This document shows, piece by piece, positions 17,591 to 56,147 of a stretch of DNA of 57,318 nucleotides. The notes beneath the pieces were generated by a model. It ran no database searches, was not told the DNA's origin, and was given only the letters and a program-made list of their open reading frames with translations. Every line of letters starts with the position of its first letter. The stretch's first letter is position 1. Origin of the DNA: a virus (taxonomy: Duplodnaviria; Caudoviricetes); IMG/VR virus record IMGVR_UViG_3300020182_000041, positions 1 through 57,318 of that record; one strand, written 5' to 3'. The translations under genes and the position numbers were made by a program.

Positions 17591-17795
17591 AAAGATAAGT
17601 ATTGGTAAAGACTACAAAAATGATGCCATGCACTACTCTGTTGGACAGGAAGTGTATGGTGGTCATACCATAAAAAATATAATTGAAGAAGATACTAAGT
17701 ACTCAATATATATAGAAAAGAATAACGAGATAATGCCATGGAAAGATTTTAATAAGAATATGGCAATTGCAGTAGAATATGACTTGCAATATTAA
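17574..17795 (+). CDS. Hypothetical protein
   Basis: MNQIVRKISIGKDYKNDAMHY; ATG at 17574 has an A-rich leader. Confidence 0.7.
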   Translation: MNQIVRKISIGKDYKNDAMHYSVGQEVYGGHTIKNIIEEDTKYSIYIEKNNEIMPWKDFNKNMAIAVEYDLQY

Positions 17796-18385
17796 TGAAG
17801 TCATTAATTAATTTTATCATAGAGCCTATAGGCGAAAGATATAACAATGTAAAGAATATTGAAGGCAACGAATTATTGTTAAATACAGAATTACAAAATC
17901 ATAATTATTCAAATAGAATAGCCAAGGTTATATCCGTACCTAAATTATCAGATACTGATATAAAAGAAGGTGATCAAGTAATAGTGCATCACAATGTATT
18001 TAGACGTTTTAGAGACATTAGAGGTGACGAAAAAAATAGTAGATCTTACTATAAAGATAATATATACTTTGCAACTGAAGATCAGGTTTATGCTTACAAA
18101 AGAAAAAGCAACTGGCAAAGCTGTAAGGGATTTAATTTCGTAAAACCTATAAAAGAAACAAAATCATTTTCATTAGATAAAGAGAAAGAAGGTGTTGGTG
18201 TTTTATACTTCAAAGATCCTGAACTAAAAGGATTAAAAGACGGAGATCTAGTCGGGTTTAGACCTGGGGCAGAATATGAATTTGTAATCGGTAACGATAG
18301 AATTTATAGAGTACCCACAAATTCAATCACAATTAAATATGAATATCAAGGAAACGAAGAAGAGTATAATCCAAGCTGGGCATAG
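17795..18385 (+). CDS. Tandem two-domain GroES-like protein
   Basis: Two GroES-like units: AKVISVP..DIKEGDQVIV and GVL..GLKDGDLVGF..EFVIGNDRIYRV. Confidence 0.6.
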   Translation: MKSLINFIIEPIGERYNNVKNIEGNELLLNTELQNHNYSNRIAKVISVPKLSDTDIKEGDQVIVHHNVFRRFRDIRGDEKNSRSYYKDNIYFATEDQVYAYKRKSNWQSCKGFNFVKPIKETKSFSLDKEKEGVGVLYFKDPELKGLKDGDLVGFRPGAEYEFVIGNDRIYRVPTNSITIKYEYQGNEEEYNPSWA

Positions 18386-38693: not shown

Positions 38694-38703
38694 ATCAAAT
38701 CTT

Positions 38704-41700
38704 ATGGCAGACGATATATTAAAAAACATATGGAACGAGTTATCTTCAAAAGGTAAAACTGATTCCGAATTTGACACATGGAAAACTAATGTGTATAGCA
38801 ATGAAGAAGTTCAAAATAATGTATACGGTTATTTAAAAGATAACGGTTATACAAACAGTGAATTTAGTGATTGGAAAACAAACGTTTTACCAGCAAAGAC
38901 AAACGACTCTGCAAGTGCGGATCCAGCTGTGGAGTCACAAAGCGATACGGGATCACAATCGGAAAATGGTTCTTCGGGTTCTCGAGACGCTAGTGATTTT
39001 GAAAATACTCAAGAAAAAGCTACCGCAATTGAAAGGACATTTGGTAAAAATGAATTTACTGATTTTGTAGGAGATATATATAGAGCATGGGATGCTGGTA
39101 CAGAAGCAGGTGGTTCTGTTAATGAAGCTTTTGATGTTTATAAAGGTAAAGATTCAACAGATAAAGAACTATATGCTTTTTTAGATAAAACAAGAAATAT
39201 AGAAGAAAAGGGGCAGACAGATGAAATGATCGGTGTTTCTGAAAAAATGGCTGAATTAAAAAAAGAAGGTTACAATGGTGTAAGTGCTTTTTTTGGAGCA
39301 TGGTGGAATAACCCTACAGCTATGCTACAATATACTGTTATGTCTTTAAGTCAAATGGGAAGAGCTTTAGTAGATAGTGAGGAAGTGGCTGGCACAGCAG
39401 CAGCAGTGTCAGGAGCAGCAGCTTTAACTGGTGGTGGAACAGGAGCAGCCTTAACCGCTTGGTCAGGACCAGGAGCTTTGTTTGGAGCAGGTGCTGGTGC
39501 AATAAGCGGAGCTATTGGTGGATTTTTTGGAGGATTATCTGGAGCTATGGAAACAGGTATGACCACAGCTGCTTTAATACAAGAAGAAGCTGTTAAAGAT
39601 GGTTTAGATTGGGGTAATTTATCAGATAAAGAAAGATTTGATTATGTTAGAAAATTACAAAATGATACTGAAAAGTTTAATCAAATAAAAAGCAATGCTT
39701 TAGCAAGGGGTGTATCCATCGGAGCGATTGATGGCGTTGTTGGCGCAATATCTGGAGGTGTGGGTACAGCCGCTAGAACAACAGTAGCTGCTGGAAGTCG
39801 AAGTGCATTAGCTGGAGCTGCTAAAGTAGCATCAGTTGCTGCGTTAGAAACAACAGGCGGAATGCTTAGTGAAGTTGCTGGACAAGCCGCCGCGGGGCAA
39901 GAGTTTAATTTAGAAGAGATTCTTATTGAAGGTTTTGCTGATAAAACATTTACAGGAATAAGTTTAGCTCAAGCGGCAACACAAGGTGCTCCTAAATATA
40001 TATTAAATGGACAAAAATTAAATGGAAAACAGTTTTCAGATGCTCTTAAAATAATGAGTGATGAAGCTTATGTTTCTGCTGATATTAAAATAGAAAATTC
40101 ACCTGCTGTTCAACAATTAGTAAATAATAGAAGACAAGATATTGCAGCAGATCAAAAAGTAGATAGTAGAATAAATGATATAAACGATAGAGCTACTGCT
40201 ATAAAATTAACAAAAGAACAAAATAGTTTAAAAGGAAACCAAGAAGGGAACAAAACTAGATTAGATCAAATAAAAGGAGAACTTAACACTATTTCAGAAA
40301 AGTATGCTGACTCTGACGTTGATGTAACAATAGAACAAAGACAACAAGCTGTAGCAGAAGCTGTTGATAACAAGTTTGAATCTAATTTTAATAAAAACTA
40401 TAAAGCAGCAAGCGAAGCAGGTAAAAAAATAGGTCTTAAAACAACGGTATATAAAACAGATCTAGGTTATAAAAAAGCTATTGAGAAAGCATTTGGAAAA
40501 TTGCCAGAAGGCTGGGACAGTAGTGAAGGGGTGTTCGCGGGTAATGGAAAGTTATTTATAAATAAAGCAAAGGCTAAGCGTAGCATAGATATATCTACAG
40601 GAAATACAGGAGCTATATCAGTTGCAAGTCATGAAGTGTTACACCCTATATTCAATGCTTTAATCGGTGACGCTAAAACCCAAAGTGAGTTTGTTCAACA
40701 GTTTAGAAAACGAATGACTAGTAAGCAAAAAACCTATGTAGACTCTCAAATAAAAAAGAGAGGTTATGGTCAAGAGCTTACTGGTATAGAATTAATGAAC
40801 ATTTTTTCTGATGGTATAATAAAAAATGAAATAACCTATGATCAAACATTTTTTGAAAAGGTAGGCGAGAGTATTATAAGATTATTCAAAGGAGAAGGAT
40901 TTGACAGACTGTCTTTTGACAATGGTCAAGACGTATACAATTTTCTTAAAGAATACAACACAAGTATAAAAGAGGGCAAGCTAAGTGATAAAGCAATTAC
41001 CACTATAAAAGAAGCTGAAACTAAAAAGAAAACTAAAGTTTCTGATGCTAAATTATTAAAAGAAGAACAGTTTTCAAAAACATTAACACCTGAACAAAAC
41101 ACGGAGTTTGCTGCAGATATATCTACTATAAAAAGTTTAGCTGCAGAGAATGCTGCAATAGCTAAGAAGTTTGGTAAAGAGCCTATCAAAGGCGCTAAGC
41201 AATCTAGGTTAGAACAAAAAGTTTTAGCAGGCATTAAAACATTGGTAGACAAAGTAGTAACAAATAGAACAAAAGCATTATATGATCCTATAGCAGACGA
41301 TGCTAAAAGAAATGTATCTAGACAAGAGTTTAAAGATTCTATGAAGGTTGATCTTGAAACGATGGCTTTAAATGAATACAACGGATCACAAGAGTTAGAG
41401 AAATTCATTGTAAATAGAGGATATTTAAGAGCAAACAACTTAGCTAAAAGATTAGGTATTGAATCACAAGAAGACGGAGGTATAAAAGCCGATGTTGATT
41501 CTGCTAAAAATATAACCAATACGAAAGACGAACAAACAATTGATCGTAGCGGAGCTGTAGAGCGTGGTCAGGCGACGTTTGACGAGCTTGATATTGTAGA
41601 TGATAAGTTAATATCTGAAATAGAATTAGAGCTCTCTAAGGAGCTTAAATTGCGTGCTAGAAAAGGTACACTTTCTCAAATGGTTTCTGTTAAAAAGGGA

Positions 41701-44700
41701 AGAGAAACTTATTTTGTATCTTGGTTAGAAGATTTTGTAGATAAAAAATTATTTAAAAAAATATTAAAAAAGTGGGGAGCAATTGGTGAATCAAAAGGTG
41801 TTACTGTTATACCTCCTGGTTATATAGATTTTTTAAATAGCAAAAAAGCTTTTGATATTGTTACTAAGGCTTTACCTATAAGAACTATAAAGAAAAGCTA
41901 TGCTAAGCTTTTTAAAATAGAAAAGGTTGGTAGAGAGTTAACACCTGAAGGCAATCCTATATATAAAATTGCACCAATAGAGAAAAAAACATTTCTTCAG
42001 TACTTTTTAGACGGTAAGAAAAATACTATATTAGAAAGGCAAAAACAATTAGCTAGAGAAATTATAACACCTGTAACTAAGGAGATTGTAGCTAACTATG
42101 CTAATGAAGAAAACATATCAAACCTTGAAGAAATACAAGAGCTTGCTCCACAAGACGCTATTGATGTAGCTAACAAAATAGTTATTGAAGCACAACTTAA
42201 CGATTTAGAGTCTAAAATCGATAGATATAAAGGAGAGAAAGAAGGATTTGACATAATACAATTTTCTATTACTAGAAAAGATTTAAAACAAATAAATGAA
42301 GCTAGTAAAACAGAATTAGATTCAGCTGAGTTTATTAAGTTCCCGAAAAGGATAAGGGACTTTATACATTACTTACATGATAAAGGTGTAATTACTGGTA
42401 ATTCTTTTGGAGGACTTATATACGAAGAGTTTATAGTTAAAACAATAAAGTCTGCCGCAAGAAAAATACCAGGGTTAAAAGTTATTTCAAATAGAGGAGC
42501 AGGTTATAATAGCCAAATCCCTGATATAACCTTACAAGTTGAAAAAGATAATAATAAGTCAAAAGTTCTTATTGAAGTTAAAAAGAATAGAAATGTTCGA
42601 TTTGGACAAGTAACTTTAGGTTTAGAAAACGGCGAAATAATAATAAGAAAAGGGGGTAAAGCTGTTGATCCGTCTACAATAGCAGGTGGTTTAAACCTAG
42701 TTAATAGAGCCGGTAATGGTAAAGAATTCTTAAACAATATATTGTCTTTAATAAATAAAGAAGAAAATACGTCTTTTAAAAATTTCCCTTTAGGTACTTC
42801 TATATCAAAAGAAACATATAAAAAAGTAACAGAGTCTAAAGATTATAAAGACTTTGTTAATTTAACAGAAGAGCTTAATCAAGAAAGAGTTGCCGCTCAT
42901 TATAATGCCAAAGGAGTATACTATATACAAATTGGAGGCAAAGGTCTTTATTATATGGGTAAAGATATATTAAATACAGGAGTACCTGAACTTAATACTG
43001 CTTTTACAGGATCAATGCGATTCAAAAAAGGTACTACAAAAAATGGTAGGAACAGTATAAGTATTGTATCAGAGCCTAAAATGAAAGGTAAATTAGACAA
43101 ATCTAATATAAGTCTTGAAACAAAAGAAGGTTCAACTGAACTTTACAATTCAATACAGTTTTCTAAAACATTAAATGAAGATTTTAATAATATTATAGAG
43201 GGAGCTACTGGTATAAAAGGTTTTAAAGTTTTTTCTGAAGCTAAAGGGAAAGTTAGAGGTCAAAACAAAGGTAAATTTAAATTTTTCATACCGCCATCTG
43301 CAGATGATTTTGCTGGTTTAGTTGGTAGGCTTTTAGGAAAAGGAGAACAAGGTAACTTAAATGCGGAGTGGTTTAAAAAGAATTTATTTAATCCGTTTGC
43401 TAAAGGCATTAGAGACTTTGAAACTTACAAAGAACAAACCACTCATATGGTTAAAGCTCTTAAAAAACGTATTAAAAATGTACCTAACGGGCTAAATAAA
43501 GTAAATGAAACAGGATTTACTAATGAAGCAGCAGTAAGAGTTTATCTTTGGGCTAAAAACGGTTATGATATTTCTGGTTTATCTAAAACTGATCAGAAAG
43601 ACTTAATTAAAATAATAAACGAGAATAAAGCTTTAAAGAAGTTTGCTGAAGAATTAAATGATACGTTTAATGGATATCCAGAACCTAACAATGACTGGTT
43701 AGCTGGAACTGTTACTACGGATATAATAAATATGGTTAATACCACTAAGCGTGCTGAGTTTTTAGAAGCTTGGCAAGAAAAAGCAGATATTATATTTTCT
43801 AAAGAAAACATAAATAAACTTAGAGCTGCTTATGGTGATAACTATGTTGAAGCATTGCAAGATATGCTTTACAGAATGAAAACCGGTAGGAATAGACCAT
43901 CAGGGGCTAACAAGCTTACGAATAAGTTTATGAACTGGGTTAATGATTCTGTAGGTACGATCATGTTCTTTAATACTAGATCAGCCTTACTACAAACATT
44001 ATCTATTGCAAACTTTATTAATTGGGGGGATAACAATCCAGCTAAAGCTGCAATGGCTTTTGCAAATCAAAAACAATTTTGGGCGGATTTTTCAATGCTT
44101 TTTAACTCTAACTTTTTAAAGCAAAGACGTTCTGGTTTAAAGAATGATGTTAATGCTGATGATATTGCAAATGCGGCAGAATCTGCTACTAATAAATCAA
44201 AAGCAGTGTTATCATCTATATTAAAGATAGGGTTCTTACCTACACAAATAGCAGATAGTTTTGCTATTGCGATGGGTGGTGCTTCTTTTATTAGGAATAG
44301 AATAAATAAATATGTTTCAGAAGGTATGGATACTAAAGCTGCTGAAGAGCAAGCTTTCTTAGATTTCCAAGAAGTAGCTGAAGAAACACAACAATCGTCT
44401 AGACCTGATAGAATATCACAACAACAGGCAAGTCCATTAGGGCGTATTATATTAGCTTTTGCAAACACTCCTATGCAATATATGAGATTAACTAAGAAAG
44501 CCTTTTTAGATCTTGTAAATAAGCGTGGTGATGCTAAAACTAATATTTCTAGAATAGTGTATTATACCTTTGTACAAAACATTATATTCTCAGCTTTGCA
44601 ATCTGCTTTATTTGCATCTATGTTTGAAGATGATGATGAAGAAGCTATAAATAACAAACAAATAAGAGTAGCAAACTCTATGCTTGATTCTATTCTTAGA

Positions 44701-45189
44701 GGTGTAGGTATTTATGGAGCTATAGCTTCTACTGGTAAAAATATAGTTTTAGAAATTGATAAGCAGGCAAAAAAAGGTAGACCTGATTTTACTCAAGCAG
44801 CTATTAGATCATTAGACTTATCACCACCATTATCATCTAAGGTTAGAAAATTAATGAGTGCAGGTAGAGCTTTTAGTTATAGTAATGTTAGAGATAAAAT
44901 GACGGGGTATGGATTAGATAATCCCGCTTTTTATGCAGGAGGTCAAGTTGTGTCTGCTTTAACTAATGTGCCTTTAGATAGAGCTATAAAGAAAGCTGAT
45001 AACATCAGAGTAGCTGTAGATAATGATACTAAGTTATGGCAATCAATAGCATTACTATTAGGATATAGCCAATGGGATTTAGGGTTAGTTGAAACATCCG
45101 CTAACAAGAAAAAGTCTGCCTGGGGTAAAATATCTAAATGGAAAAAAAATAATAGTTGGAAAAAAGAATGGAAATCTAAAAACAAATAA
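38704..45189 (+). CDS. Giant multidomain (polyvalent-like) ejection protein
   Basis: Gly-zipper membrane region, HEVLH zincin motif, PD...EVK nuclease motif, helical C-terminus with TQQS..P and ANTP; ATG at 38704 preferred. Confidence 0.75.
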   Translation: MADDILKNIWNELSSKGKTDSEFDTWKTNVYSNEEVQNNVYGYLKDNGYTNSEFSDWKTNVLPAKTNDSASADPAVESQSDTGSQSENGSSGSRDASDFENTQEKATAIERTFGKNEFTDFVGDIYRAWDAGTEAGGSVNEAFDVYKGKDSTDKELYAFLDKTRNIEEKGQTDEMIGVSEKMAELKKEGYNGVSAFFGAWWNNPTAMLQYTVMSLSQMGRALVDSEEVAGTAAAVSGAAALTGGGTGAALTAWSGPGALFGAGAGAISGAIGGFFGGLSGAMETGMTTAALIQEEAVKDGLDWGNLSDKERFDYVRKLQNDTEKFNQIKSNALARGVSIGAIDGVVGAISGGVGTAARTTVAAGSRSALAGAAKVASVAALETTGGMLSEVAGQAAAGQEFNLEEILIEGFADKTFTGISLAQAATQGAPKYILNGQKLNGKQFSDALKIMSDEAYVSADIKIENSPAVQQLVNNRRQDIAADQKVDSRINDINDRATAIKLTKEQNSLKGNQEGNKTRLDQIKGELNTISEKYADSDVDVTIEQRQQAVAEAVDNKFESNFNKNYKAASEAGKKIGLKTTVYKTDLGYKKAIEKAFGKLPEGWDSSEGVFAGNGKLFINKAKAKRSIDISTGNTGAISVASHEVLHPIFNALIGDAKTQSEFVQQFRKRMTSKQKTYVDSQIKKRGYGQELTGIELMNIFSDGIIKNEITYDQTFFEKVGESIIRLFKGEGFDRLSFDNGQDVYNFLKEYNTSIKEGKLSDKAITTIKEAETKKKTKVSDAKLLKEEQFSKTLTPEQNTEFAADISTIKSLAAENAAIAKKFGKEPIKGAKQSRLEQKVLAGIKTLVDKVVTNRTKALYDPIADDAKRNVSRQEFKDSMKVDLETMALNEYNGSQELEKFIVNRGYLRANNLAKRLGIESQEDGGIKADVDSAKNITNTKDEQTIDRSGAVERGQATFDELDIVDDKLISEIELELSKELKLRARKGTLSQMVSVKKGRETYFVSWLEDFVDKKLFKKILKKWGAIGESKGVTVIPPGYIDFLNSKKAFDIVTKALPIRTIKKSYAKLFKIEKVGRELTPEGNPIYKIAPIEKKTFLQYFLDGKKNTILERQKQLAREIITPVTKEIVANYANEENISNLEEIQELAPQDAIDVANKIVIEAQLNDLESKIDRYKGEKEGFDIIQFSITRKDLKQINEASKTELDSAEFIKFPKRIRDFIHYLHDKGVITGNSFGGLIYEEFIVKTIKSAARKIPGLKVISNRGAGYNSQIPDITLQVEKDNNKSKVLIEVKKNRNVRFGQVTLGLENGEIIIRKGGKAVDPSTIAGGLNLVNRAGNGKEFLNNILSLINKEENTSFKNFPLGTSISKETYKKVTESKDYKDFVNLTEELNQERVAAHYNAKGVYYIQIGGKGLYYMGKDILNTGVPELNTAFTGSMRFKKGTTKNGRNSISIVSEPKMKGKLDKSNISLETKEGSTELYNSIQFSKTLNEDFNNIIEGATGIKGFKVFSEAKGKVRGQNKGKFKFFIPPSADDFAGLVGRLLGKGEQGNLNAEWFKKNLFNPFAKGIRDFETYKEQTTHMVKALKKRIKNVPNGLNKVNETGFTNEAAVRVYLWAKNGYDISGLSKTDQKDLIKIINENKALKKFAEELNDTFNGYPEPNNDWLAGTVTTDIINMVNTTKRAEFLEAWQEKADIIFSKENINKLRAAYGDNYVEALQDMLYRMKTGRNRPSGANKLTNKFMNWVNDSVGTIMFFNTRSALLQTLSIANFINWGDNNPAKAAMAFANQKQFWADFSMLFNSNFLKQRRSGLKNDVNADDIANAAESATNKSKAVLSSILKIGFLPTQIADSFAIAMGGASFIRNRINKYVSEGMDTKAAEEQAFLDFQEVAEETQQSSRPDRISQQQASPLGRIILAFANTPMQYMRLTKKAFLDLVNKRGDAKTNISRIVYYTFVQNIIFSALQSALFASMFEDDDEEAINNKQIRVANSMLDSILRGVGIYGAIASTGKNIVLEIDKQAKKGRPDFTQAAIRSLDLSPPLSSKVRKLMSAGRAFSYSNVRDKMTGYGLDNPAFYAGGQVVSALTNVPLDRAIKKADNIRVAVDNDTKLWQSIALLLGYSQWDLGLVETSANKKKSAWGKISKWKKNNSWKKEWKSKNK

Positions 45190-46006: not shown

Positions 46007-47725
46007 TTATCCATCACACGCTAAGCAATCTTCATTCATCGCTGTAGCCGCAATATCTCCACGTAGAACACTTTCTGTTCTCGTATAATATAATGTTTTA
46101 ACACCATTTTTCCATGCTTCCATGTGCACTTTATTAAGCCATTTAGGTGTTGCTTCACTTGGAAAAGCTAAATTTAAACTTACCGACTGATCTACATATT
46201 GCTGTCTCAGTCCAGCCTGATTAACTAATTCAAGTTGATTAATTTCCTTAAACGTTTTAAAAACTTCTTTAGCAGGTATGTCATGCCCCATAACAATATT
46301 ATCAAGCTCAGATATATCCTGTACAGAACCTCCATCAGCGAGTATCTTATCCCAAATTTCATTTGTATTTATTTTATGTTTCCTTAATAATTTAACTAAG
46401 GTAGGATTTTTTCTTATAAAAGTACCTTTAGCTGATTGTTCTGTGAATACGTTAGCAGCCCACGGCTCTATACCTGGCGAAACATTTCCGCTAAGTTTAC
46501 TATTGCTAACAGTGGGAGCAACAGCACGCAAGTGAGTATTGCGCATGCCAGTACCAGCACACCACAAAGGCTCGCCATAAATTTCAGAAAGATCCATAGA
46601 AGCCCTTTCGCTTTCGATTTTAATCTGACTGAATATTTTCCTAGTTTCAAACTGAGCAAGTAAACCTTCAAAAGGAATACCTTTGTCTTGGAGATAGGTA
46701 TGCCATCCGAGGACACCCAACCCAAGAGCTCTTCCTTTCTGAGCACTACGAACGGCATTTTCAAAACCTCTAAGTCCTTTTGCTCTTTGAATAAATTCCT
46801 CCATAACGCCGTCAAGAAACCATATGGCGTCGTATATAAGATTAGTATCCTTCCATTCTTCATACTTTGCTAGATTTAACGATGATAAACAACATACAAA
46901 ACTATGGTTTTCATCTGTGTGTAATGTAATTTCAGAACATATGTTTGTCATATGTACTTTTAAGCCGTTTTCTTTGTATGCTCTAGGATTTGATTTGTTA
47001 ACGTTTCCTTTAAACATAATATACGGTTCTCCAGTTGCTTTTCGTTTTCTAAGCAATTTACTCCACTTAGATCTTGCTCCTGCATCTCCTTGTTCAAGCT
47101 TTCGCATAAATTTATCACCAACAACTGCGCACTGATGTAAGTTAAGCGATTGTCTATTAACGTCTCCTTTAGGTTCTCGTATTTCAAGCCACTGTTCAAA
47201 ATCGTCATGATCAATGTTGATGTTGACGCTTGCAGCGCCCCGTCTAACTGATCCTTGATTTGTTGCAAGAATTGTTGAATCGTATATCTTGCAGAAGGGT
47301 ACGACTCCGTCTGATGTTCCATTACCTGTAATTTTAGCGCCAGCGGGTCTAATTTGATTTATGCCGATACCAACTCCACCGCCGTGCTTAGCGAGTAGCA
47401 TCATCTCTAAATTTTTACTTCCTATATCCTGTATACTATCTGCTACATCAATACCAAAGCAGCTAATAGGGAGACCGCGGTCAGTACCAGTATTGCTAAG
47501 TACAGGAGATGCCAAACATAACCAACCATTCCAAATATAATTGAAAAAGGTTTCAGCAAGTTCCGGTTTATAAAGCCTACGAGCAACAGTTTTAGAGACG
47601 CGAAGGTATGCTTCTTTAGGTGTTTCTCCGTCAAATAAATATCCCCCGGATATAGTCTTCTTGTATACGTCGTTATTACCCCACGCAGGGTAATCTTCTC
47701 CTTTGATCCATTCATTGTTCCACAT
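46007..47725 (-). CDS. nrdA: Class I ribonucleotide reductase alpha subunit, no ATP cone
   Basis: ISCF, TNICSEI, APTVS, KTLYY, C-terminal CLAC. Confidence 0.95.
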   Translation of the reverse strand: MWNNEWIKGEDYPAWGNNDVYKKTISGGYLFDGETPKEAYLRVSKTVARRLYKPELAETFFNYIWNGWLCLASPVLSNTGTDRGLPISCFGIDVADSIQDIGSKNLEMMLLAKHGGGVGIGINQIRPAGAKITGNGTSDGVVPFCKIYDSTILATNQGSVRRGAASVNINIDHDDFEQWLEIREPKGDVNRQSLNLHQCAVVGDKFMRKLEQGDAGARSKWSKLLRKRKATGEPYIMFKGNVNKSNPRAYKENGLKVHMTNICSEITLHTDENHSFVCCLSSLNLAKYEEWKDTNLIYDAIWFLDGVMEEFIQRAKGLRGFENAVRSAQKGRALGLGVLGWHTYLQDKGIPFEGLLAQFETRKIFSQIKIESERASMDLSEIYGEPLWCAGTGMRNTHLRAVAPTVSNSKLSGNVSPGIEPWAANVFTEQSAKGTFIRKNPTLVKLLRKHKINTNEIWDKILADGGSVQDISELDNIVMGHDIPAKEVFKTFKEINQLELVNQAGLRQQYVDQSVSLNLAFPSEATPKWLNKVHMEAWKNGVKTLYYTRTESVLRGDIAATAMNEDCLACDG

Positions 47726-48143: not shown

Positions 48144-49112
48144 TTACCACATGTCTTCAAAATCCTCACCCTCGTTCGCTTTTGAGTAATCAGTTGGCCT
48201 AATCGCAAAAAAGTCAGTATGGGTAACGCCCCCGGTAAGATGATAAAACCAATCAAGATTACCTGCTGCATTCTTGTCATAGGCAAAGTAATTCCCAAGG
48301 TCAATATAGCCAAGCTCCACAAGTTTTTCATTTGTTCTTTTCTTTATAAAATGTTTTAGGTCATTAGCAGATATACCTTCTATATCTCCCATCTCAAACA
48401 TTTTATTAATGTAAATGGTTTCTAATTTAACCATCGCTTCAGCAGCATTTATCACGTCTTCACGACATAAATTTAATAACTGATTGTTTTCACTGCACAT
48501 ATGGCGAAACAATGAGCAGCCCATTTTACTATGCAATGATTCATCTCTAACAGACCACTTCATTTGTTGTCCAATACCTTTTAAAAGGTTTCTCATTTGA
48601 AAACTATATAATACAGCAAAAGCAGAATAAAGGCTAACCCCTTCAGCAAATGCACTAAATACAGCGAGAGACTTAGCAATGCCAATCTCAGAATTACCTT
48701 TATACGCAACGAGATTTTCAAATCTTTTAGCCGTAGCAGGTTCGTGTAAAAATGCTTCATAATCTTCTAATCCTAATGTTTCGTTCAAATAACTATAAGC
48801 AACAGCGTGAACTGTTTCTTGTGATCCGAACATCATCGCCATTTGTTGTATCTCGTGTTTAGGAAACCACGATACGACGTTCTGGGTCCAGTAATCTGAA
48901 ACGGCGCACTCGGTTTGCGCGAATCCAAGAAGTATGTTCCCAACAAGGTTTTTTTCTTTCTCATCTAATTTTTCTTTCCAATCTTTAATATCACTTTGCA
49001 TTGAAATTTCAGTGTGTAACCAAAATGCTTGAGCTTGTTTTAACCAACCCTCAGTATAATACTCTGGGTACTCAAAAGGTTTATATGCAATTCTTTCATC
49101 AAATAATCCCAT
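48144..49112 (-). CDS. nrdB: Ribonucleotide reductase beta subunit, class Id-like
   Basis: AQTE, ETVHAVAY, AEGVSLYSAF, RDESLH, C-terminal DFFA..PTDY. Confidence 0.95.
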   Translation of the reverse strand: MGLFDERIAYKPFEYPEYYTEGWLKQAQAFWLHTEISMQSDIKDWKEKLDEKEKNLVGNILLGFAQTECAVSDYWTQNVVSWFPKHEIQQMAMMFGSQETVHAVAYSYLNETLGLEDYEAFLHEPATAKRFENLVAYKGNSEIGIAKSLAVFSAFAEGVSLYSAFAVLYSFQMRNLLKGIGQQMKWSVRDESLHSKMGCSLFRHMCSENNQLLNLCREDVINAAEAMVKLETIYINKMFEMGDIEGISANDLKHFIKKRTNEKLVELGYIDLGNYFAYDKNAAGNLDWFYHLTGGVTHTDFFAIRPTDYSKANEGEDFEDMW

Positions 49113-49277: not shown

Positions 49278-49438
49278 ATTATTCCGTATTTTTTTTGTAA
49301 TTCAACAATATCTTTGTATTTAATTTTACCTTTAACTTCCCAGCTCCATTTAACAAACTTATCAATTTGACGCTCAGCGTATTTCTGCCTAGCTATTCGC
49401 TTCGCTTGGAAAGGATTAACTTTACTGTCTCTTCGCAT
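49274..49438 (-). CDS. 54-aa basic hypothetical protein (not in ORF track)
   Basis: MRRDSKVNPFQAKRIARQKYAERQIDKF...KYGII; fills the gap between neighbours. Confidence 0.6.
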   Translation of the reverse strand: MRRDSKVNPFQAKRIARQKYAERQIDKFVKWSWEVKGKIKYKDIVELQKKYGII

Positions 49439-49851
49439 TCTTTTTGATTTTGTGGTTTGTATAATGTTACATTCGGGAATTGATTCATAACAAGTCTTTT
49501 AAACAACTTCCAACGCATTGGAAATGATTCATTAGCTCTACCTTTAGTTTCAATTATAAAATCATCACCAATAAAATCAGGAGTATATTTAATTGGTAAG
49601 ATTCTTTTCTCGCCTCTATTTTTATAATCTCCTTTACCATTAGCTTGTCTTTCATAAACTTTGTTTTCAAAATGAAAACCTGGTAGTAATACAAAGGTTT
49701 CACCTTCATACTTGTTTTTAATCTTAGCGTTTTTTAAAGCAACATACATATGCTTCTCAAGACCTGACGCAAAGTCAATACCATCATATGATACCTTTTT
49801 TGCTCTTACTGGTCCACGCTTTCCGCTTTTTCTTTTAAATTGTTTTCTCAT
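49393..49851 (-). CDS. PD-(D/E)xK endonuclease, T7 endonuclease I-like
   Basis: FASGLE, YEGE, YTPDF, IIETKG. Confidence 0.8.
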   Translation of the reverse strand: MRKQFKRKSGKRGPVRAKKVSYDGIDFASGLEKHMYVALKNAKIKNKYEGETFVLLPGFHFENKVYERQANGKGDYKNRGEKRILPIKYTPDFIGDDFIIETKGRANESFPMRWKLFKRLVMNQFPNVTLYKPQNQKECEETVKLILSKRSE

Positions 49852-50095
49852 CTATAACGTCTAAGTCGGATAATAAATCTTCTTGAAGATTTTCTGTATA
49901 TGTTTCTTTAGCTTTTTGAAGATACAATACAGCATCCATTAATTCTTCTTGTAAATGATTAAGCCATTCAAACATTGTTGAAGGATCTTGTTCAAGAGTT
50001 ACGCCGTATTTTTTAAAGCCTACATCTGATCTAGATACAAATTTATTAACAACACGCTTAACTACTGGATCTCTAAATTCTATTTCTTGTTTCAT
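49835..50095 (-). CDS. Small all-alpha protein, possibly MazG/dNTP pyrophosphatase superfamily
   Basis: GFKKYGVTL...WLNHLQEELMDAVLY acidic helix motif. Confidence 0.5.
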   Translation of the reverse strand: MKQEIEFRDPVVKRVVNKFVSRSDVGFKKYGVTLEQDPSTMFEWLNHLQEELMDAVLYLQKAKETYTENLQEDLLSDLDVIDEKTI

Positions 50096-50847
50096 TATAG
50101 TGTTTGTTTAACGAAGGTTCCATTCTCCATCTTGCCTACACGATTTTTTATTACAGTATATGCAGAGTCAATACAATCTTCAATGGTTACATTTTCTAAT
50201 GCTGCTAAGTTAGTCAAAACTACGACAATATCCCCTATTGCATCAATAATTTCTGGCTTATCCTTAGTAAGTAATGCTTTTGCTAACTCACCAGTTTCTT
50301 CCATTAATTTAACATACTGTGTTTTGCTATCTCCTTTATCATATATGCCTTTAGCATGAGCCCACTGTCTTATTAATTCAAATCTATCTTCTTTATTCCA
50401 TGATTGACTAAATGCAGCAGCAAATGCTTTATTATATATATAAGATCTATGATCATTAAACATTGATCTTTTTGCGTTAGCCATAATCCATGTAATTGTT
50501 TCAAGCGTTAATTCAAAGTCACCGTGGTCTGTAGACCATTTAACCCCAACGTTATCCATTAAATTACCTTTTAACTTGTTTAATGGGAAGGGGAATGTAC
50601 TTGTCTGCTCTGTAGCGTTAATTTTCATTTTATTTGATTTGATTAAATTCTTATAAGACTGTCTATCAATCTTATAGCCATAAGACTTTTGAAGCTCTAT
50701 TTCCTTATATGACACATAATCAATGTCATCGCTAGTAAGTAGAACTTCGTATTCGTCTGAAGCATAGCCTTGCTGCTCCGTAACTCTATTATTAAGATTA
50801 CGTGTAACTCCTATTTTTTTACCTGGAATGTGATAAATATAATACAT
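50095..50847 (-). CDS. MazG-like nucleotide pyrophosphohydrolase with N-terminal GIY-YIG-like domain
   Basis: C-terminal KLMEETGELA...DAIGD...IKNRVGKMENGTFVK; N-terminal YYIYHI..KIGVT.NL..R. Confidence 0.75.
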   Translation of the reverse strand: MYYIYHIPGKKIGVTRNLNNRVTEQQGYASDEYEVLLTSDDIDYVSYKEIELQKSYGYKIDRQSYKNLIKSNKMKINATEQTSTFPFPLNKLKGNLMDNVGVKWSTDHGDFELTLETITWIMANAKRSMFNDHRSYIYNKAFAAAFSQSWNKEDRFELIRQWAHAKGIYDKGDSKTQYVKLMEETGELAKALLTKDKPEIIDAIGDIVVVLTNLAALENVTIEDCIDSAYTVIKNRVGKMENGTFVKQTL

Positions 50848-50855
50848 ATTTTTAG

Positions 50856-51668
50856 TTATTTGCCAACACTTAACTTTGCTTTTATTGCAGCGTAAGGATT
50901 GTAGTTAATTAATTTAATTTCATTAGCTTCCGGGATATTCATTGAAATATCTAATCCTGAAGATAATTGTAACTTTGGTAAAGCTCTATTAGGCCTACTC
51001 AAATATAATTTAGCTTGATCTAAGTGATTGTTATATAAATGACAATCTCCAAGTTGACCAATCAATTCACCTGGTATTAAATTAGCTCCTTTAGCTAACA
51101 TCTCCAGTAACAGTCCATACATTGCAATATCATAAGGTAATCCTAAAAAAGTATCTACTGATCTTTGTAACCACATTAGATCTAATTTACCGTTATTGAT
51201 ATAAACTTGAAAAGCATAATGACAAGGGGGCAGTGCCATATCTTTCATATCTTGTGGAGCCCATGCGCTGACCATTAAGCGTCTTGAACTTGGATTGTTC
51301 TTAATGCTATACACAATATTTTTAAGCTGATCTACGCCCTCGAAATCACGCCACTGTTTTCCATATACCGGACCTAATGTTTCGTCTGTTCTACCTGAGC
51401 GTTCGTAATCAGGTCTCCAATATTTAACACCGTTATCTTCTAAGTATTTAAGATCAGTTCTACCTTGTAATATCCAGAGCAATTCTGTTCTTGCTGCATT
51501 AAAAGAAATTTTCTTTCCAGTTAATAAGGGGAACCCGTCAGCCATCTGGTGTCGGATAGTTCTTCCGAAGATAGATCGCGTCCCAGTGCCTGTTCGGTCC
51601 TCCTTATGTAATCCTGTGTTGAGTATTTGTGATAATAATCCTCTGTATTCATTTTCTATGTTTGTCAT
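50856..51668 (-). CDS. thyA: Thymidylate synthase (ThyA) family enzyme with Asn-to-Asp specificity change
   Basis: DRTGTGT, ELLW, GPVYG, LPPCH, QRSVD, HLYNNH; LGLPYDIA where LGLPFNIA is canonical. Confidence 0.9.
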   Translation of the reverse strand: MTNIENEYRGLLSQILNTGLHKEDRTGTGTRSIFGRTIRHQMADGFPLLTGKKISFNAARTELLWILQGRTDLKYLEDNGVKYWRPDYERSGRTDETLGPVYGKQWRDFEGVDQLKNIVYSIKNNPSSRRLMVSAWAPQDMKDMALPPCHYAFQVYINNGKLDLMWLQRSVDTFLGLPYDIAMYGLLLEMLAKGANLIPGELIGQLGDCHLYNNHLDQAKLYLSRPNRALPKLQLSSGLDISMNIPEANEIKLINYNPYAAIKAKLSVGK

Positions 51669-51912
51669 AATAATATTTACAAAATTCAAAGCATTTCTGC
51701 CATATAATAGTTTTTTCGTAAGCTTCAGGAGATACGTTAGTTTTACCTTTATTTGTTATAGTTACATACCATTCAGTAGTTGACTTTGCTTTTGGTGAAA
51801 TAGCTATGCCATTATTTACACACCATCTATAAGCTTCCCAGTCTTTTTTGTTATAACCAGTTACGCCCATGTCTACAGAACCTTTACGTTTTTTTCCTAA
51901 GCCACTACCCAT
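51649..51912 (-). CDS. Hypothetical protein
   Basis: 87 aa, abuts the primase stop. Confidence 0.65.
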   Translation of the reverse strand: MGSGLGKKRKGSVDMGVTGYNKKDWEAYRWCVNNGIAISPKAKSTTEWYVTITNKGKTNVSPEAYEKTIIWQKCFEFCKYYYDKHRK

Positions 51913-53622
51913 TTATTCCCACGGCATTTTTTCGCCGGCTAAATTTAATTGTTCATGCGGTATAAAACAACCTGACTTTGGATCCCATTTAAAATGAGCT
52001 TCAGCTTGGTTAGTACCTAAGTTTTGAAACTTAACTTTTAATACCTTAGCTTTAACAGTATTGTCTGCGTAGTTTCTGTGTACTAATATACCATGATAAG
52101 ATGCATCATACCATTCACCACCCCCTTTAATAGAATACATTGTAGGCTCTTCAATCTGTCCATTTTGATTCTTATACATTTTAGTTGGGTGAGCAACGAT
52201 AAACACTAATACGTCATACTTCTTAGCAAACATCTCTATCTTGCTTAAGTATTCCATAGTATATCTATTGACATCTTCCGTCTTACAATCTACATCTCTT
52301 ACTTTATTAAATGGATCTATAACTAAACATTTAATACCTTTACGTTTAACTAGCTCAGCACCTTTCTTAAGTACTGATTCTAGAGTGTAACGTTCCATGT
52401 CAATGTGAAAGTAATTAGTATTACAATGATCTGCTATCTGATTCCAGCGTTCCCCTCCAATATCTTCTCTTGTTGGCATACCTTGCCAAGTCTTACGCAT
52501 CAACTTATGTGCGTGAAGATATGTTGGTACATTCTCTGGCGAAGCGAAAGCTGTTTTCCAACCATAGTTCGCATTGTAGCCGATAACCATTTGATCGACA
52601 AAATCACTTTTACCGGAACTAGGTATACCAGTGACAGTAATAAATTGACCGGTATAAGTTGAAAATATATCGTCAAAGTTCTGTAAACCGATTTGAAACC
52701 CTGGCTTAAAGCCATTACGAACAAAGTCTGTAACCTCGTCTTCGACATCTCTGAAAGTAGTAACATTTTCAAGCGGTACTGGTCTTGCTCCTGTAATACG
52801 CTTTGATAGTTCTTCTTTTCCATGTTTTTGTAAATATTCGTTTGCGTCCTTGCAATCATCAAATGAAACTAAATAACAAACTTCTGAACCTAATCTACGT
52901 ATAAGTTCTGATTGTAATGCTTGTCCTGCTTCATCATTGTCTACTGCTAATATAATTTTTTCTTTGTCTTCAAAGTAATCTATACAAGCATCTAAGTATT
53001 CAAGGTTATTTGTGTTAAGCGTAGCTCCATTAGGAACTGATATTGCATTTGGTATTCCAGCTTCATGTAGTGCAAGCACGTCCATTTCACCTTCAACAAT
53101 AACACAATACTCATATCCTATTATACTATTTATATTATAGAATACTTTTTCAGCACCTTTATATAATTTAAAGTTTTTTCTACCATCACGATACTTAACG
53201 TTTATAAGCTGATCGCCCATGAAGTAGTTAAACTTTATAACATTCTCGGTTTTACCGGTCTGTGGCATATACTCAGGACCTTCACTAATCCTTAGATCAG
53301 TTAAGGTCTCTTGAGAAATACCTCTTGTATTAAACCATTCAACCACCTTGCTAGCTGGAGGATTATGCTTAACCTCAGTAGGTCTTACATATACCTTTTC
53401 ACTAGCTCCTTTACGTTGATACGTATGTAGTTGAAATGATGTATTACAATTATGACAAGTACCAAGACCACGTTCCCAATCATAAGACGCGCATTTTGCC
53501 TTTTGATTCTTGGGTTTTCTATCAGGAGAACAATTAGGGCATATACCCTGTTTCTTTCCTTCTTCAAGCTTATGTTGATTGAATTCATCAATCAAAAATC
53601 CATTGATCTCTGTTGTCTGCAT
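51913..53622 (-). CDS. Primase-helicase (T7 gp4/Twinkle-like)
   Basis: CPNC..CHNC zinc domain, TOPRIM EGEMD and DNDEAG, Walker A GIPSSGKS, IDPFN, VAHP. Confidence 0.93.
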   Translation of the reverse strand: MQTTEINGFLIDEFNQHKLEEGKKQGICPNCSPDRKPKNQKAKCASYDWERGLGTCHNCNTSFQLHTYQRKGASEKVYVRPTEVKHNPPASKVVEWFNTRGISQETLTDLRISEGPEYMPQTGKTENVIKFNYFMGDQLINVKYRDGRKNFKLYKGAEKVFYNINSIIGYEYCVIVEGEMDVLALHEAGIPNAISVPNGATLNTNNLEYLDACIDYFEDKEKIILAVDNDEAGQALQSELIRRLGSEVCYLVSFDDCKDANEYLQKHGKEELSKRITGARPVPLENVTTFRDVEDEVTDFVRNGFKPGFQIGLQNFDDIFSTYTGQFITVTGIPSSGKSDFVDQMVIGYNANYGWKTAFASPENVPTYLHAHKLMRKTWQGMPTREDIGGERWNQIADHCNTNYFHIDMERYTLESVLKKGAELVKRKGIKCLVIDPFNKVRDVDCKTEDVNRYTMEYLSKIEMFAKKYDVLVFIVAHPTKMYKNQNGQIEEPTMYSIKGGGEWYDASYHGILVHRNYADNTVKAKVLKVKFQNLGTNQAEAHFKWDPKSGCFIPHEQLNLAGEKMPWE

Positions 53623-53654
53623 TTAATTGCGATATTTAATTTAATTTAATTTAA

Positions 53655-53762
53655 TTATTCTCCATCTCTACAGTCGGGACATATGTCACAAAAATCTATC
53701 TCTTCTTGAGACATGCCAGCATGACACATTTGACATGCTAGCTCTCCATTATTCCTATACAT
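53655..53762 (-). CDS. 35-aa Cys-rich zinc-ribbon microprotein (not in ORF track)
   Basis: MYRNNGELACQMCHAGMSQEEIDFCDICPDCRDGE; TAATG-coupled to the SSB-like gene. Confidence 0.65.
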   Translation of the reverse strand: MYRNNGELACQMCHAGMSQEEIDFCDICPDCRDGE

Positions 53763-54135: not shown

Positions 54136-54867
54136 TTACAACGTCTGATTAATGAAATAATTCTCCGATTTAAAATCTGGATTTTCATAAAACAGTTTGT
54201 ATGCTTCACAGGCTCTCTCTACTTTGTCTTTACCTTTTGCATAAAACTCAGGAGAGCAATCGTATATACCTATTTGATTTGTTGTCTTGTCTATAGCTAT
54301 AAAAATTAATTCATATCCAAACAACTCTCGGTATATATAAGCTTGACTGTTATAGTTATACTTCGATGCTGAGTAACGAAATTTTGTAATGTCAGCGGTA
54401 GTTTTAAGATCAATCACTAGTTTTTGACTGTGATTAATAATATCAGCTTTACCTTTCCATAATCTTCCATTAATCTCTGCAATTCCAGGGACTTCGTATT
54501 CAACAACTCCTTCACGTATTAAATCAAGGCATACTTCGTTCGACAGCATGGTGTCAATCATTACCTCTAATTTGTCTACTTCTGATTGCAATAAACACAT
54601 CTCACCCCCTGAGATCTCTCTGTACGCTTTAGTATTCCTAGTTGATGCTTCCACTATTCTGAATTTTTTAAGCTTATCTGGCTCTAAAATTGCAGTGTGA
54701 AAGTAACCACCAACTAAGAATGCAGGGATTTGTTTTTGTGGATCCCTAAGTGCAAGAGGATTAGTTAATAGCGTAGAGATATCTGAGTTGCTTAAAAATT
54801 GCTTTCCAAACTTACCGTAGTAATGCTCATCTTCTCTTAGCTTTTCTAATTCTTCTTTTCTGGTCAT
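54136..54867 (-). CDS. RecE/exonuclease VIII-like PD-(D/E)xK exonuclease
   Basis: LSNSDI, GGYFHTAILE, KGKADII, IDLKTT, YNSQAYIY. Confidence 0.85.
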   Translation of the reverse strand: MTRKEELEKLREDEHYYGKFGKQFLSNSDISTLLTNPLALRDPQKQIPAFLVGGYFHTAILEPDKLKKFRIVEASTRNTKAYREISGGEMCLLQSEVDKLEVMIDTMLSNEVCLDLIREGVVEYEVPGIAEINGRLWKGKADIINHSQKLVIDLKTTADITKFRYSASKYNYNSQAYIYRELFGYELIFIAIDKTTNQIGIYDCSPEFYAKGKDKVERACEAYKLFYENPDFKSENYFINQTL

Positions 54868-55379
54868 AAAGTTTTTAGTATTTCAGCAGGTATTTCATAT
54901 TTGCCTTTGATGGCTTCTAAACTTCCTCCTGCTTTTAAGAAAGCTTTTGCTTTTGTTAATGCTGCACCTTCAAGCTTAGGCTTAGATTTACCATGTGCAT
55001 TTGTTGCATCACTGTCTGCTGTATCATCTATTAAGAATAGATTACCCAGGGCATATTTTTTTCCGTAACTAGAGGCACTACCAAATTTTTGAGGCATTTG
55101 CATACCTTTTTGATTTAGATCAACACCAACAATAGACGTAGCGTGTATAGCATCAGTTCCATCGGTGATAGTAGCTTTAGATTCTAGTATAGGAAAATCA
55201 GTACTGGATATTAATGTTTCATTAATAGTAACTGATACACCTAACTCTAGCAAATAAGGTTTAGTGGCTTCTAAAATATCTTCAGCTGATCGAAAGTTAT
55301 ACTTTCCGAAGGAATTGAATCTACTTTTTTTAGATTTGAATTTTGTCTGGATGGTGGCCAGCTTTTCATTTAGTTTCAT
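54864..55379 (-). CDS. erf: ERF-family ssDNA annealing protein
   Basis: YNFRSAEDILEA, QKFGSASSYGKKYAL..LF.IDD..DSD. Confidence 0.88.
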   Translation of the reverse strand: MKLNEKLATIQTKFKSKKSRFNSFGKYNFRSAEDILEATKPYLLELGVSVTINETLISSTDFPILESKATITDGTDAIHATSIVGVDLNQKGMQMPQKFGSASSYGKKYALGNLFLIDDTADSDATNAHGKSKPKLEGAALTKAKAFLKAGGSLEAIKGKYEIPAEILKTL

Positions 55380-55397: not shown

Positions 55398-56147
55398 TTA
55401 TAAATAATCGATCACTTGTGAAGGATCTGTGTTTGCTATTAATTTGTCAATAGCTTCTTTTTTTATTTGAGATATTCTTACGTTCGCGGTTGAAACACTG
55501 ATGCTTAACTTAGATGCGATGTTGTTCGCAGAAGTTCTGTCACAATCTAAACCGAATGACAATCTTAACACTTCATATTGTTGAAAAGTTAAGTACTCTC
55601 TCATTAATCCTAACAGATAAGCATTCATTAAACCTATATTATAAGGTTCTGAGTTATCTTCTATTTGCAATATAGGGTTTTCTTCATCGTTATAATTTTC
55701 ATCGTAGCTAGAAAACACACTATTAAAGAATAATGACACCATTTTGTTATCATCTGGATTCTTGCGGATTTGATTAAGTTTATGCTCAGGGATTTTTACA
55801 TCTCCTCTGTTTATATCTATAGCTCTACGTATTGCTCCTTTAATTCTTTTACTAAAAAATGACTTTAATGTTTTTTCCATGTCTTCCGACTCATTTAACA
55901 TTTCCCAATCTAGCTTATCTACCGCTTTAACTAATCCGGCATTACCTTCTTGTATCAAATCATTTATACTTAAAACTCCTGAAGCTTGCTGAGAAGTTGA
56001 AAACTTTCTAGCTAAGTTCTCTACTAACGGCATGAATGAGATAATTAATTCATCTCTAGTATAATCTGCAAAAGCTTTTTCTTCAGGCATAGAGATTTTT
56101 AAATCTTCTTTATACCTAACGTAATTTTGTATATTATACTTTTTCAT
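55398..56147 (-). CDS. Phage-encoded sigma-70 family factor
   Basis: DLIQEGNAGLVKAVDK region 2, RIKGAIRRAI, region 4 VLRLSFGL...RISQIKKEAIDKL. Confidence 0.88.
   Translation of the reverse strand: MKKYNIQNYVRYKEDLKISMPEEKAFADYTRDELIISFMPLVENLARKFSTSQQASGVLSINDLIQEGNAGLVKAVDKLDWEMLNESEDMEKTLKSFFSKRIKGAIRRAIDINRGDVKIPEHKLNQIRKNPDDNKMVSLFFNSVFSSYDENYNDEENPILQIEDNSEPYNIGLMNAYLLGLMREYLTFQQYEVLRLSFGLDCDRTSANNIASKLSISVSTANVRISQIKKEAIDKLIANTDPSQVIDYL

Follow-up and report, generated by a model that had tools for sequence, protein, structure and literature searches.

An Asp-type ThyA homologue of a marine phage lineage as a predicted dCMP methylase

Does a phage enzyme of the thymidylate synthase (TS) family act on deoxyuridine monophosphate (dUMP) or on deoxycytidine monophosphate (dCMP)? 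This question is raised by a ThyA-family gene at positions 50856..51668 of the minus strand of IMG/VR virus record IMGVR_UViG_3300020182_000041, a linear record that is 57,318 bases long and is estimated to be 89% complete, the whole of which is called the window in this study. In an original prediction made from the letters of the window, an Asp had been noticed at the pyrimidine-specificity site, and 5-methyl-dCMP (5mdCMP) or hydroxymethyl-dCMP had been proposed as the product. We analyzed the gene, its homologues and its neighbors. As judged from its residues, the enzyme is probably a folate-dependent dCMP methylase (5mdCMP synthase). On balance, we also favor the combined picture in which a dCMP C5-methyltransferase on a ThyA scaffold supplies 5-methylcytosine (5mC) for the phage DNA.

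The ThyA-family gene and its aspartate

The open reading frame (ORF) occupies positions 50856-51689 of the minus strand, and an ATG at position 51668 gives a protein of 270 amino acids (aa). The same or a nearby Met as in this protein (MTNIENEY) was found in most homologues. The protein matched PF00303 (Thymidylat_synt) over its full length (E 8.1e-89, 297.7 bits, profile positions 2-266 of 266), and it scored 284 bits against the NCBIfam equivalog TIGR03284, for which the cut-off is 108 bits. The best matching solved structures in the HMMER search were bacterial thymidylate synthases (E 1e-70). The window TS is 44-50% identical to solved TSs, and the MAFFT alignment gave 44% identity to E. 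coli ThyA. Its homologues are named thymidylate synthase in the source databases.

The translation contains EDRTGTGT, TELLW, LGPVYGKQWR, ALPPCHYAFQ, QRSVDTFLGLPYDIAMY and GDCHLYNNH, so that the motifs read as intact in the original prediction (DRTGTGT, ELLW, GPVYG, PPCH and HLY) are all present. The catalytic Cys146, Glu58 and Tyr94, the phosphate-binding Arg21 and Arg166, and Asp169 were all aligned and conserved (state string REW.YLCHRD). In total, E58, W80, Y94, L143, C146, H147, R166, D169, H207 and Y209 are kept. The otherwise classical ThyA scaffold of the prediction is borne out by this catalytic set and by the full-length PF00303 match. Thus, the membership in the ThyA family is established.

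The in-frame minus-strand reading around the specificity site is TTA CCT TAT GAT ATT, in which GAT corresponds to 51131-51129 (51129..51131, minus strand). In the MAFFT alignment with E. coli ThyA, the Asp of QRSVDTFLGLPYDIAMY falls in the column of Asn177, the canonical uracil selector. The HMMER alignment with solved thymidylate synthases gave the same column, pairing ...glpydiamy... of the window with ...gvpfniasy... of the solved proteins. These results agree with the codon and the site that had been predicted. Asp was likewise found in the Asn177 column of the TS homologue of Xanthomonas phage Xp12 and of T4 gp42 in the MAFFT alignment; for the T4 dCMP hydroxymethylase, this Asp had also been anticipated.

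We then compared 81 loci, consisting of the window and 80 IMG/VR loci with 64-90% identity. Asp was found in 81/81. Among the 77 loci with the strict pattern, the codon was GAT in 71 and GAC in 6, and the other four loci read PYDF. Asp was also found in 119/120 of the closest database homologues (77-89% identity), which come from marine metagenomes, on contigs as long as about 65 kb. For one of them, a Polaribacter sp. assembly is named as the source. The only homologue without the Asp, P0042 (84% identity), has an in-frame deletion of 15 residues, by which precisely the RS.D..LGLPYDIAM segment is lost and the Asp with it. This is a dead allele or else an artefact of assembly.

Outside the clade, Asn is the rule. 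In the 150 best representatives at 50% identity, the Asn177 column contained N in 135, D in 14 and S in one. Two other queries (P0185 and P0171) recovered 99 viral TS ORFs, in which the column was N in 96, D in two and a gap in one, so that these queries yielded two Asp-type loci. Since Asn is one transition away and yet Asp is present in 81/81 loci with both synonymous codons, the residue is, judging from the codons, under purifying selection.

Contigs of two different coded studies span the codon, with no difference in one (run X1, record 5) and one difference in the other (run X8, record 29). No difference fell on the Asp codon among the differences listed, with 253 further differences outside this list. 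Thus, the Asp is neither a sequencing error nor a singleton, either of which would have undone the original prediction, and its fixation in the clade, for which an alignment of homologues had been proposed as the check, is established.

Residue signature and predicted chemistry

The Asp at the N177 site is reported to correlate with TS homologues on cytosine-modified contigs, with position 147 as a second discriminator, and N177D is reported to switch TS to dCMP (PMC8670742). This is consistent with the premise of the prediction, namely that the Asn selects dUMP and that the Asn-to-Asp mutant methylates dCMP. As for the product, L143D/E is described as accompanying non-methyl products, and D169N as the mark of 5-hydroxy-dCMP synthases (PMC13326640). 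Hydroxymethylases are described with Asp or Glu three residues before the catalytic Cys and with an S-x-Y motif (PMC6400193, PMC13326640). This acidic residue is given as the water activator in T4 gp42-type hydroxymethylases, and the C-terminal tail by which TSs close their active site for hydride transfer is reported to be missing from hydroxymethylases, as in the ternary complex of the T4 dCMP hydroxymethylase (dCH) (PMC6400193). In E. coli in vivo, the Xp12 enzyme and five of seven metaviromic Asp-type TSs are reported to have given 5-methyldeoxycytidine (5mdC) (bioRxiv 10.1101/2024.12.05.627091).

The window TS possesses L143, P-V-Y94, H147, D169 and the C-terminal tail. In the clade, LPP-C was present in 77/77 sequences, PVYG in 74/77 and KVYG in 2/77. 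None of the hydroxymethylase signatures (Asp or Glu three before Cys, S/T-x-Y, loss of the tail) was found in the window TS. The 5-hydroxy-dCMP synthase signature, D169N together with L143E, was also not found, as D169 and L143 are retained. The features of 5mdCMP synthases, which are Asp at the N177 site, a non-acidic residue at 143 and a retained Asp169, were all found; the verified Xp12 enzyme itself has N at 143. The residue signature is established, and since L143, P-V-Y, D169 and the tail fit the published rules, it most likely points to a dCMP methylase and not to a hydroxymethylase or a 5-hydroxy-dCMP synthase. Of the two products originally considered, the methyl one is favored by Leu143 and P-V-Y, and the hydroxymethyl one is disfavored.

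Based on the signature, the reaction may be proposed as follows. The Asp at the Asn177 site would accept cytosine in place of uracil and would protonate it at N3/N4. Cys146 would attack C6, and the methylene group of methylenetetrahydrofolate would pass to C5. With the hydrophobic gate of Leu143 and Trp80 and the C-terminal tail kept, a hydride would reduce the exocyclic methylene, and no water adduct would be formed. The products would be 5mdCMP and dihydrofolate.

The clade departs from Asn-type TSs at several sites, namely F62I, I79Y, F176Y, S180M and Q219Y, and by an extension of two residues at the C-terminus. Site 180 lies one helical turn from site 177. It is M in the clade and S in 130/136 Asn-type sequences, and it is a residue other than Ser in 9/16 sequences of the other Asp-type lineages vs 6/136 Asn-type sequences. 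This variability in Asp-type lineages suggests a co-adaptation of the pyrimidine pocket. At the C-terminus, 117/120 clade proteins end with LSVGK/N, and 131/136 Asn-type sequences end at the canonical position. Accordingly longer by two residues, the window TS ends with ...LSVGK, and the canonical C-terminal residue that seals the active site is not its last one. We also asked whether W83D might indicate an active site opened in the manner of hydroxymethylases. This idea was rejected: of 136 Asn-type sequences, 72 have W, 42 have D and 18 have N at position 83, and the change is thus common in ordinary TSs.

The linked pyrophosphohydrolase gene and the competing explanations

The gene directly downstream (50095..50847, minus strand) encodes a protein with a T5orf172/GIY-YIG-like N-terminus and a MazG/PRA-PH pyrophosphohydrolase C-terminus, as annotated with Pfam, PHROG and Atlas clusters. 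The Pfam matches were to PRA-PH (4.2e-06; 27.5 bits, cut-off 21.3) and MazG (5.5e-06; 27 bits, cut-off 22), and the PHROG matches were to phrog_1992 and phrog_715 (MazG-like). The N-terminal half (residues 1-130), which begins MYYIYHIPGKKIGVTRNLNNR, has a GIY-YIG/T5orf172-like look and gave no Pfam match. The Atlas clusters of the protein carry MazG, PRA-PH and T5orf172, the last in 10-48% of the members of related clusters. Matches to designed 'Pizza' repeat proteins in the PDB were discarded, as they are sums of weak repeats, each with an E of 9-38.

In the window, the MazG-like gene begins 8 nt past the TS stop. A MazG/PRA-PH gene was found downstream of TS in 79/79 informative loci, mostly 7-12 nt away, and thus the linkage of the two genes is established. 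The acidic metal-binding motif that defines the MazG/PRA-PH family, EExxE...DxxD, is intact in 79/79 of the MazG-like orthologues. From the domain and its position, the protein may act as a pyrophosphatase on dCTP (or dUTP) and thereby supply the methylase with dCMP.

The other neighbors are also on the minus strand. Upstream of TS lies a conserved ORF of 87 aa (51649..51912), the end of which overlaps the TS start by 20 nt; it is directly upstream of TS in 80/81 loci and gave no Pfam, PHROG or NCBIfam match. It is preceded by a primase-helicase (51913..53622; phrog_239, 1.7e-85) with Toprim and DnaB_C domains. A Pfam-type scan of the early block detected a PD-(D/E)XK exonuclease (DUF3799; 54136-54867) and an ERF single-strand annealing protein (54864-55379), and a sigma-70-like factor (55398-56147) was identified by region 2 (E 5.5e-06), with a weak region 4. 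Downstream of the MazG-like gene, a conserved ORF of 86 aa (49835..50095) was found in 75/81 loci. It matched only function-unassigned PHROGs, and its Atlas match (0.77) is merely a lead. The small (48144..49112; PF00268, 2.4e-56; phrog_86) and large (46007..47725; PF02867, 3.1e-92; phrog_84) subunits of ribonucleotide reductase belong to the same nucleotide-supply block as TS. The early order is therefore sigma-like factor, ERF recombinase, PD-(D/E)XK exonuclease, primase-helicase, 87-aa ORF, TS(Asp), MazG-like protein, 86-aa ORF, DUF1064, and the small and large subunits of ribonucleotide reductase. The gene order around TS is conserved across 80 loci.

As a control, we scanned the immediate neighbors of 61 dereplicated Asn-type viral TS loci. 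Dihydrofolate reductase (DHFR) was found 12 times and PRA-PH twice among 122 ORFs (122/128; six very long ORFs of L154, L172 and L185 were left out). The scoring was by Pfam, since an iterative DHFR profile ran away (124 matches) and was discarded. In modified contigs, PRA-PH is reported to be one of the top co-located domains (bioRxiv 10.1101/2024.12.05.627091), and in metaviromic TS(Asp) modules (MetaGPA contigs) a PRA-PH/MazG-type gene directly follows TS(Asp), as in the window. One example is L091, an IMG/VR contig of another Asp-type lineage, in which the order at 5485-7719 is a Tmk/deoxynucleoside kinase-like kinase, TS(Asp), PRA-PH and a dCMP-family deaminase. This block looks like a complete 5mC nucleotide module. 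The similarity between its pyrophosphohydrolase and that of the window is weak (33% over 48 aa). A pyrophosphohydrolase beside TS thus looks characteristic of Asp-type modules, although with the very few Asp-type lineages sampled this is anecdotal.

The substrate and the product of the TS, the dCTPase role of its partner and the incorporation into DNA are what we infer from these observations. The MazG/PRA-PH enzyme would hydrolyze dCTP to dCMP, by which the methylase would be fed and the competing dCTP depleted. Host FolA would recycle dihydrofolate, and host kinases would turn 5mdCMP into 5mdCTP. The host replicase, recruited by the phage primase-helicase, would then put 5mC into the phage DNA, partly or fully, and the 5mC would shield this DNA from cytosine-sensitive restriction. 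For a virion DNA with largely or at least substantially 5mC, we see roughly an even chance, at best. The strongest version, in which a marine flavobacterial podophage lineage that is abundant and recurs globally replaces most or all of its cytosine with 5mC by means of only two phage genes, a natural N177D ThyA and a fused T5orf172-MazG dCTPase, and without a kinase, deaminase, DHFR or DNA polymerase from the phage, is a tentative proposal that we regard as somewhat doubtful. If it holds, host CMP kinase, Ndk and the replicase must handle 5-methyl-dC nucleotides.

Companion genes were searched for in the window and in five complete relatives (G001-G005), which are 100% complete by CheckV, terminal repeats being present in three. 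When the window was scanned one ORF at a time, only structural, lysis, chaperonin and replication/nucleotide genes were recognized. Searches of the window and of four complete relatives gave no Asn-type ThyA and no ThyX, which leaves the Asp enzyme as the only TS homologue of the phage. Loci that extend beyond the right end of the window add a ligase, a GP88-like protein and small ORFs, and no nucleotide-modifying enzyme was found in them. The primase-helicase is the only replisome protein recognized in the window, and the phage family seems to depend on the host replicase.

Several observations weigh against the proposed pathway. The MazG domain showed no significant similarity to the T4 dCTPase gp56. 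PF00383 (dCMP deaminase) was absent from the window and the five complete relatives, and DHFR from the window and four of them. Neither a Tmk-type kinase nor a C5 DNA methyltransferase was found in the window or the complete relatives; PolA was absent from the five complete relatives and PolB from the window and four relatives. With no kinase or DNA polymerase found, the later steps of the pathway fall to the host. The upstream kinase and the downstream deaminase of L091 are both absent from the window family. In Xp12, TS, dCMP-deaminase and DHFR genes stand side by side without a MazG gene, whereas the window family possesses the MazG-like gene and lacks the deaminase and DHFR. As for the enzyme, two of the seven Asp-type enzymes of the in vivo assay are reported to have given no 5mdC (bioRxiv 10.1101/2024.12.05.627091), and I79Y and the longer C-terminus are departures at elements of folate binding and closure that may affect hydride transfer. 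Finally, CATG is strongly under-represented in the window, with 74 observed vs 139 expected (ratio 0.53, z -6.6), in what is a weak test with no matched control; a fully 5mC genome might not need to avoid CATG. Several further C-containing palindromes, and AATT, were mildly low in the window and GATC was not low, and GGTACC and GAATTC were low among the hexamers.

The persisting CATG avoidance would suit a different fate of the methylated nucleotide. A dCMP methylase might serve pool conversion, in which 5mdCMP or 5mdCTP is deaminated by a host deaminase to deoxythymidine mono- or triphosphate (dTMP or dTTP), cytosine nucleotides from host DNA become thymidine for an AT-rich phage, and the virion contains little or no 5mC. 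The phage is indeed AT-rich, the searches gave no kinase or polymerase of the phage that is adapted to 5mC nucleotides, and phages of the Xp12 type are reported to deaminate part of the 5mdCTP pool to dTTP (bioRxiv 10.1101/2024.12.05.627091). However, no deaminase is encoded in the window or the five complete relatives, and an Asn-type ThyA, carried by 96/99 viral TS ORFs, would give dTMP more simply. We regard this explanation as unlikely.

A dCMP hydroxymethylase is, in our estimation, a rather improbable explanation. In such an enzyme, water and not hydride attacks the exocyclic methylene, the product is 5-hydroxymethyl-dCMP, and the genome contains hydroxymethylcytosine (hmC), as in T4gt. 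The Asp at the N177 site is common to T4 gp42, and the C-terminus longer by two residues and I79Y near the folate site could loosen the seal on the active site. The phage encodes no DHFR, and an enzyme that produces tetrahydrofolate would need none. However, the residue three before Cys is Leu and not Asp/Glu, P-V-Y takes the place of S/T-x-Y (rules reported in PMC6400193, PMC13326640), and the tail missing in T4 dCH is present in the window TS. Furthermore, in a comparison with E. coli ThyA, the window TS reaches 44% identity and T4 gp42 23%, and the window ORFs scanned gave neither a glycosyltransferase nor another gene for the tailoring of hmC.

An ordinary or dual-specificity TS that mainly converts dUMP to dTMP for an AT-rich genome is very improbable: the otherwise canonical scaffold, the score far above the TIGR03284 cut-off, the 34.5% G+C of the window and the location beside ribonucleotide reductase, as with many phage thyA genes, would suit it, but a dUMP substrate hardly explains why Asn, one transition from GAT/GAC, is found in 0/81 loci, site 180 is changed as well (M vs S in the Asn-type sequences), and published mutant and metavirome data are reported to tie Asp to dCMP (PMC8670742).

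Relatives, distribution and known systems

Returning to the predicted dCMP methylase, we asked where it stands among its relatives. In FastTree and quick IQ-TREE trees, the clade joins two sister Asp-type representatives (Shimodaira-Hasegawa-like approximate likelihood ratio test, SH-aLRT, 98) and sits among Asn-type sequences, apart from the Xp12 group. The trees need 10-11 changes of state at site 177, of which at least four are forced by strong branches. In the approximately unbiased (AU) test, joining the clade with the Xp12 group was not rejected (p-AU 0.79), and the constrained tree had a log-likelihood 32 units higher. Since the constrained tree scored better, the quick free tree search was suboptimal. 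Thus, an origin independent of the Xp12 lineage is not claimed. A single origin of all 22 Asp-type rows was rejected at the borderline (log-likelihood 108 lower, p-AU 0.043). With the sister representative P0121 as the query, only two viral loci were obtained. Near the clade, long insertions divide the TS domain of P0198 and P0246 (about 529 aa) into two stretches; of these two representatives, one belongs to the Asp type and the other to the Asn type. No second Pfam domain was found in them, and the insertions are possibly inteins or homing elements.

DNA nearly identical to the window was found in RNA libraries and in marine metagenomes, the latter belonging to at least nine coded studies of the years 2018-2024. 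All listed runs are metagenomic or metatranscriptomic; no modification-aware library is described among them, and the DNA runs come without a library record. For window positions 49300-53700, runs X1, X6, X8 and X15 each gave hundreds of contigs at 90-99% identity, with differences that are mostly transitions, and thus the microdiversity of the TS region is high. Contigs from metatranscriptome libraries cover the TS region, which is not proof of transcription.

A megablast of 5 kb gave no match in the phage collection, in which very near records may be masked. By terminase, MW202828 (62%) comes nearest among the cultured or complete phages, followed by the Flavobacterium Elemoviruses (45%). 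A PF00303 gene was absent from MW202828 and MT497065, one record of each relative being searched.

Other genes of the window were noted in the scans. A GroEL-like chaperonin (11122-12675, plus strand; phrog_5725, E 1.7e-134) adjoins a GroES-like co-chaperonin (12675-12932, plus strand), and a second, longer GroES-like protein of 196 aa is encoded at 17795-18385 (plus strand). Three giant ORFs are also on the plus strand. The first (4784-9529, 1581 aa) has a C-terminal endosialidase-chaperone domain, as in tail fibres. The second (28518-33944, 1808 aa) gave a weak C-terminal match to a crAss-like 'muzzle protein' domain (E 7e-06, which falls slightly short of the cut-off), and the third (38686-45189, 2167 aa) has no Pfam match. 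Together, they hint at a virion built in a crAss-like or N4-like way.

The Asn177-to-Asp rule is already published, as are natural phage enzymes of the Asp type and the screening of IMG/VR and metaviromes by this rule. Since the IMG/VR screen of the preprint is reported to have required a deaminase on the contig (bioRxiv 10.1101/2024.12.05.627091), a clade without the deaminase would have been filtered from it. No published description of the flavobacterial-phage clade was found in the articles covered on such TSs or dCMP methylases. Thus, the window enzyme is a new, abundant marine lineage of an already known enzyme type, and the conceptual advance is small.

The practical consequence lies in annotation. 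The protein is labeled thymidylate synthase by automatic annotation, and reconstructions of nucleotide metabolism for these marine phages are probably wrong at this point. If the combined picture is true, a widespread marine phage lineage carries 5mC DNA, which would affect restriction and Type IV defence in its contest with Flavobacteriia, and would bear on methylation- or enzyme-based virome methods and on estimates of pre-replicative cytosine replacement at sea. If the two-gene replacement is also true, a noticeable share of coastal viral DNA would be 5mC-substituted and yet annotated with plain 'thymidylate synthase'.

Among the characterized systems, the Xp12 TS homologue (MT664984, QNN97214) resembles the window TS in its ThyA family, the Asp at N177 and the P-Y-D motif. 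It is reported as verified to give 5mdC, and 5mC fully replaces C in the Xp12 genome (PMC7653180; bioRxiv 10.1101/2024.12.05.627091). At 143 and 147, the Xp12 enzyme has N and P, respectively, and its C-terminus is shorter, whereas the window TS has L143, H147 and a longer C-terminus. In one alignment, the identity to E. coli ThyA was 44% for the window TS, 30% for Xp12 TS and 23% for T4 gp42. Thus, in sequence, the window enzyme stands far nearer to canonical ThyA than do the characterized phage enzymes.

T4 gp42 shares with the window TS the Asp (D179) at the N177-equivalent position and the catalytic Cys, Glu and Tyr. It is reported to act in a pre-replicative replacement of cytosine aided by the dCTPase gp56 (PMC6400193), and a comparable role is proposed for the window TS. 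In contrast, gp42 carries Asp where ThyA has L143, possesses S-x-Y and lacks the C-terminal tail, none of which applies to the window TS, and T4 also encodes a deoxynucleoside monophosphate kinase, glucosyltransferases and its own polymerase. The 5-hydroxy-dCMP synthases RB69 gp48 and DLP3 gp80 are, like the window TS, ThyA homologues with N177D, and they are reported to act on dCMP (PMC13326640). They carry D169N and L143E, whereas the window TS has D169 and L143.

A further parallel is found in two mutants made in the laboratory, N177D of E. coli ThyA and N229D of L. casei TS, which have the same single Asn-to-Asp change on a canonical ThyA scaffold. These mutants are reported to prefer dCMP and to make 5mdCMP (cited in PMC8670742 and PMC13326640). 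Unlike them, the window enzyme is natural and its Asp is fixed in a whole clade, where it is accompanied by F176Y, S180M, I79Y, F62I and the two additional C-terminal residues. The clade therefore offers a natural, evolved N177D enzyme on a canonical ThyA scaffold, in which S180M, F176Y, I79Y and the longer C-terminus can be compared with the poor laboratory mutants.

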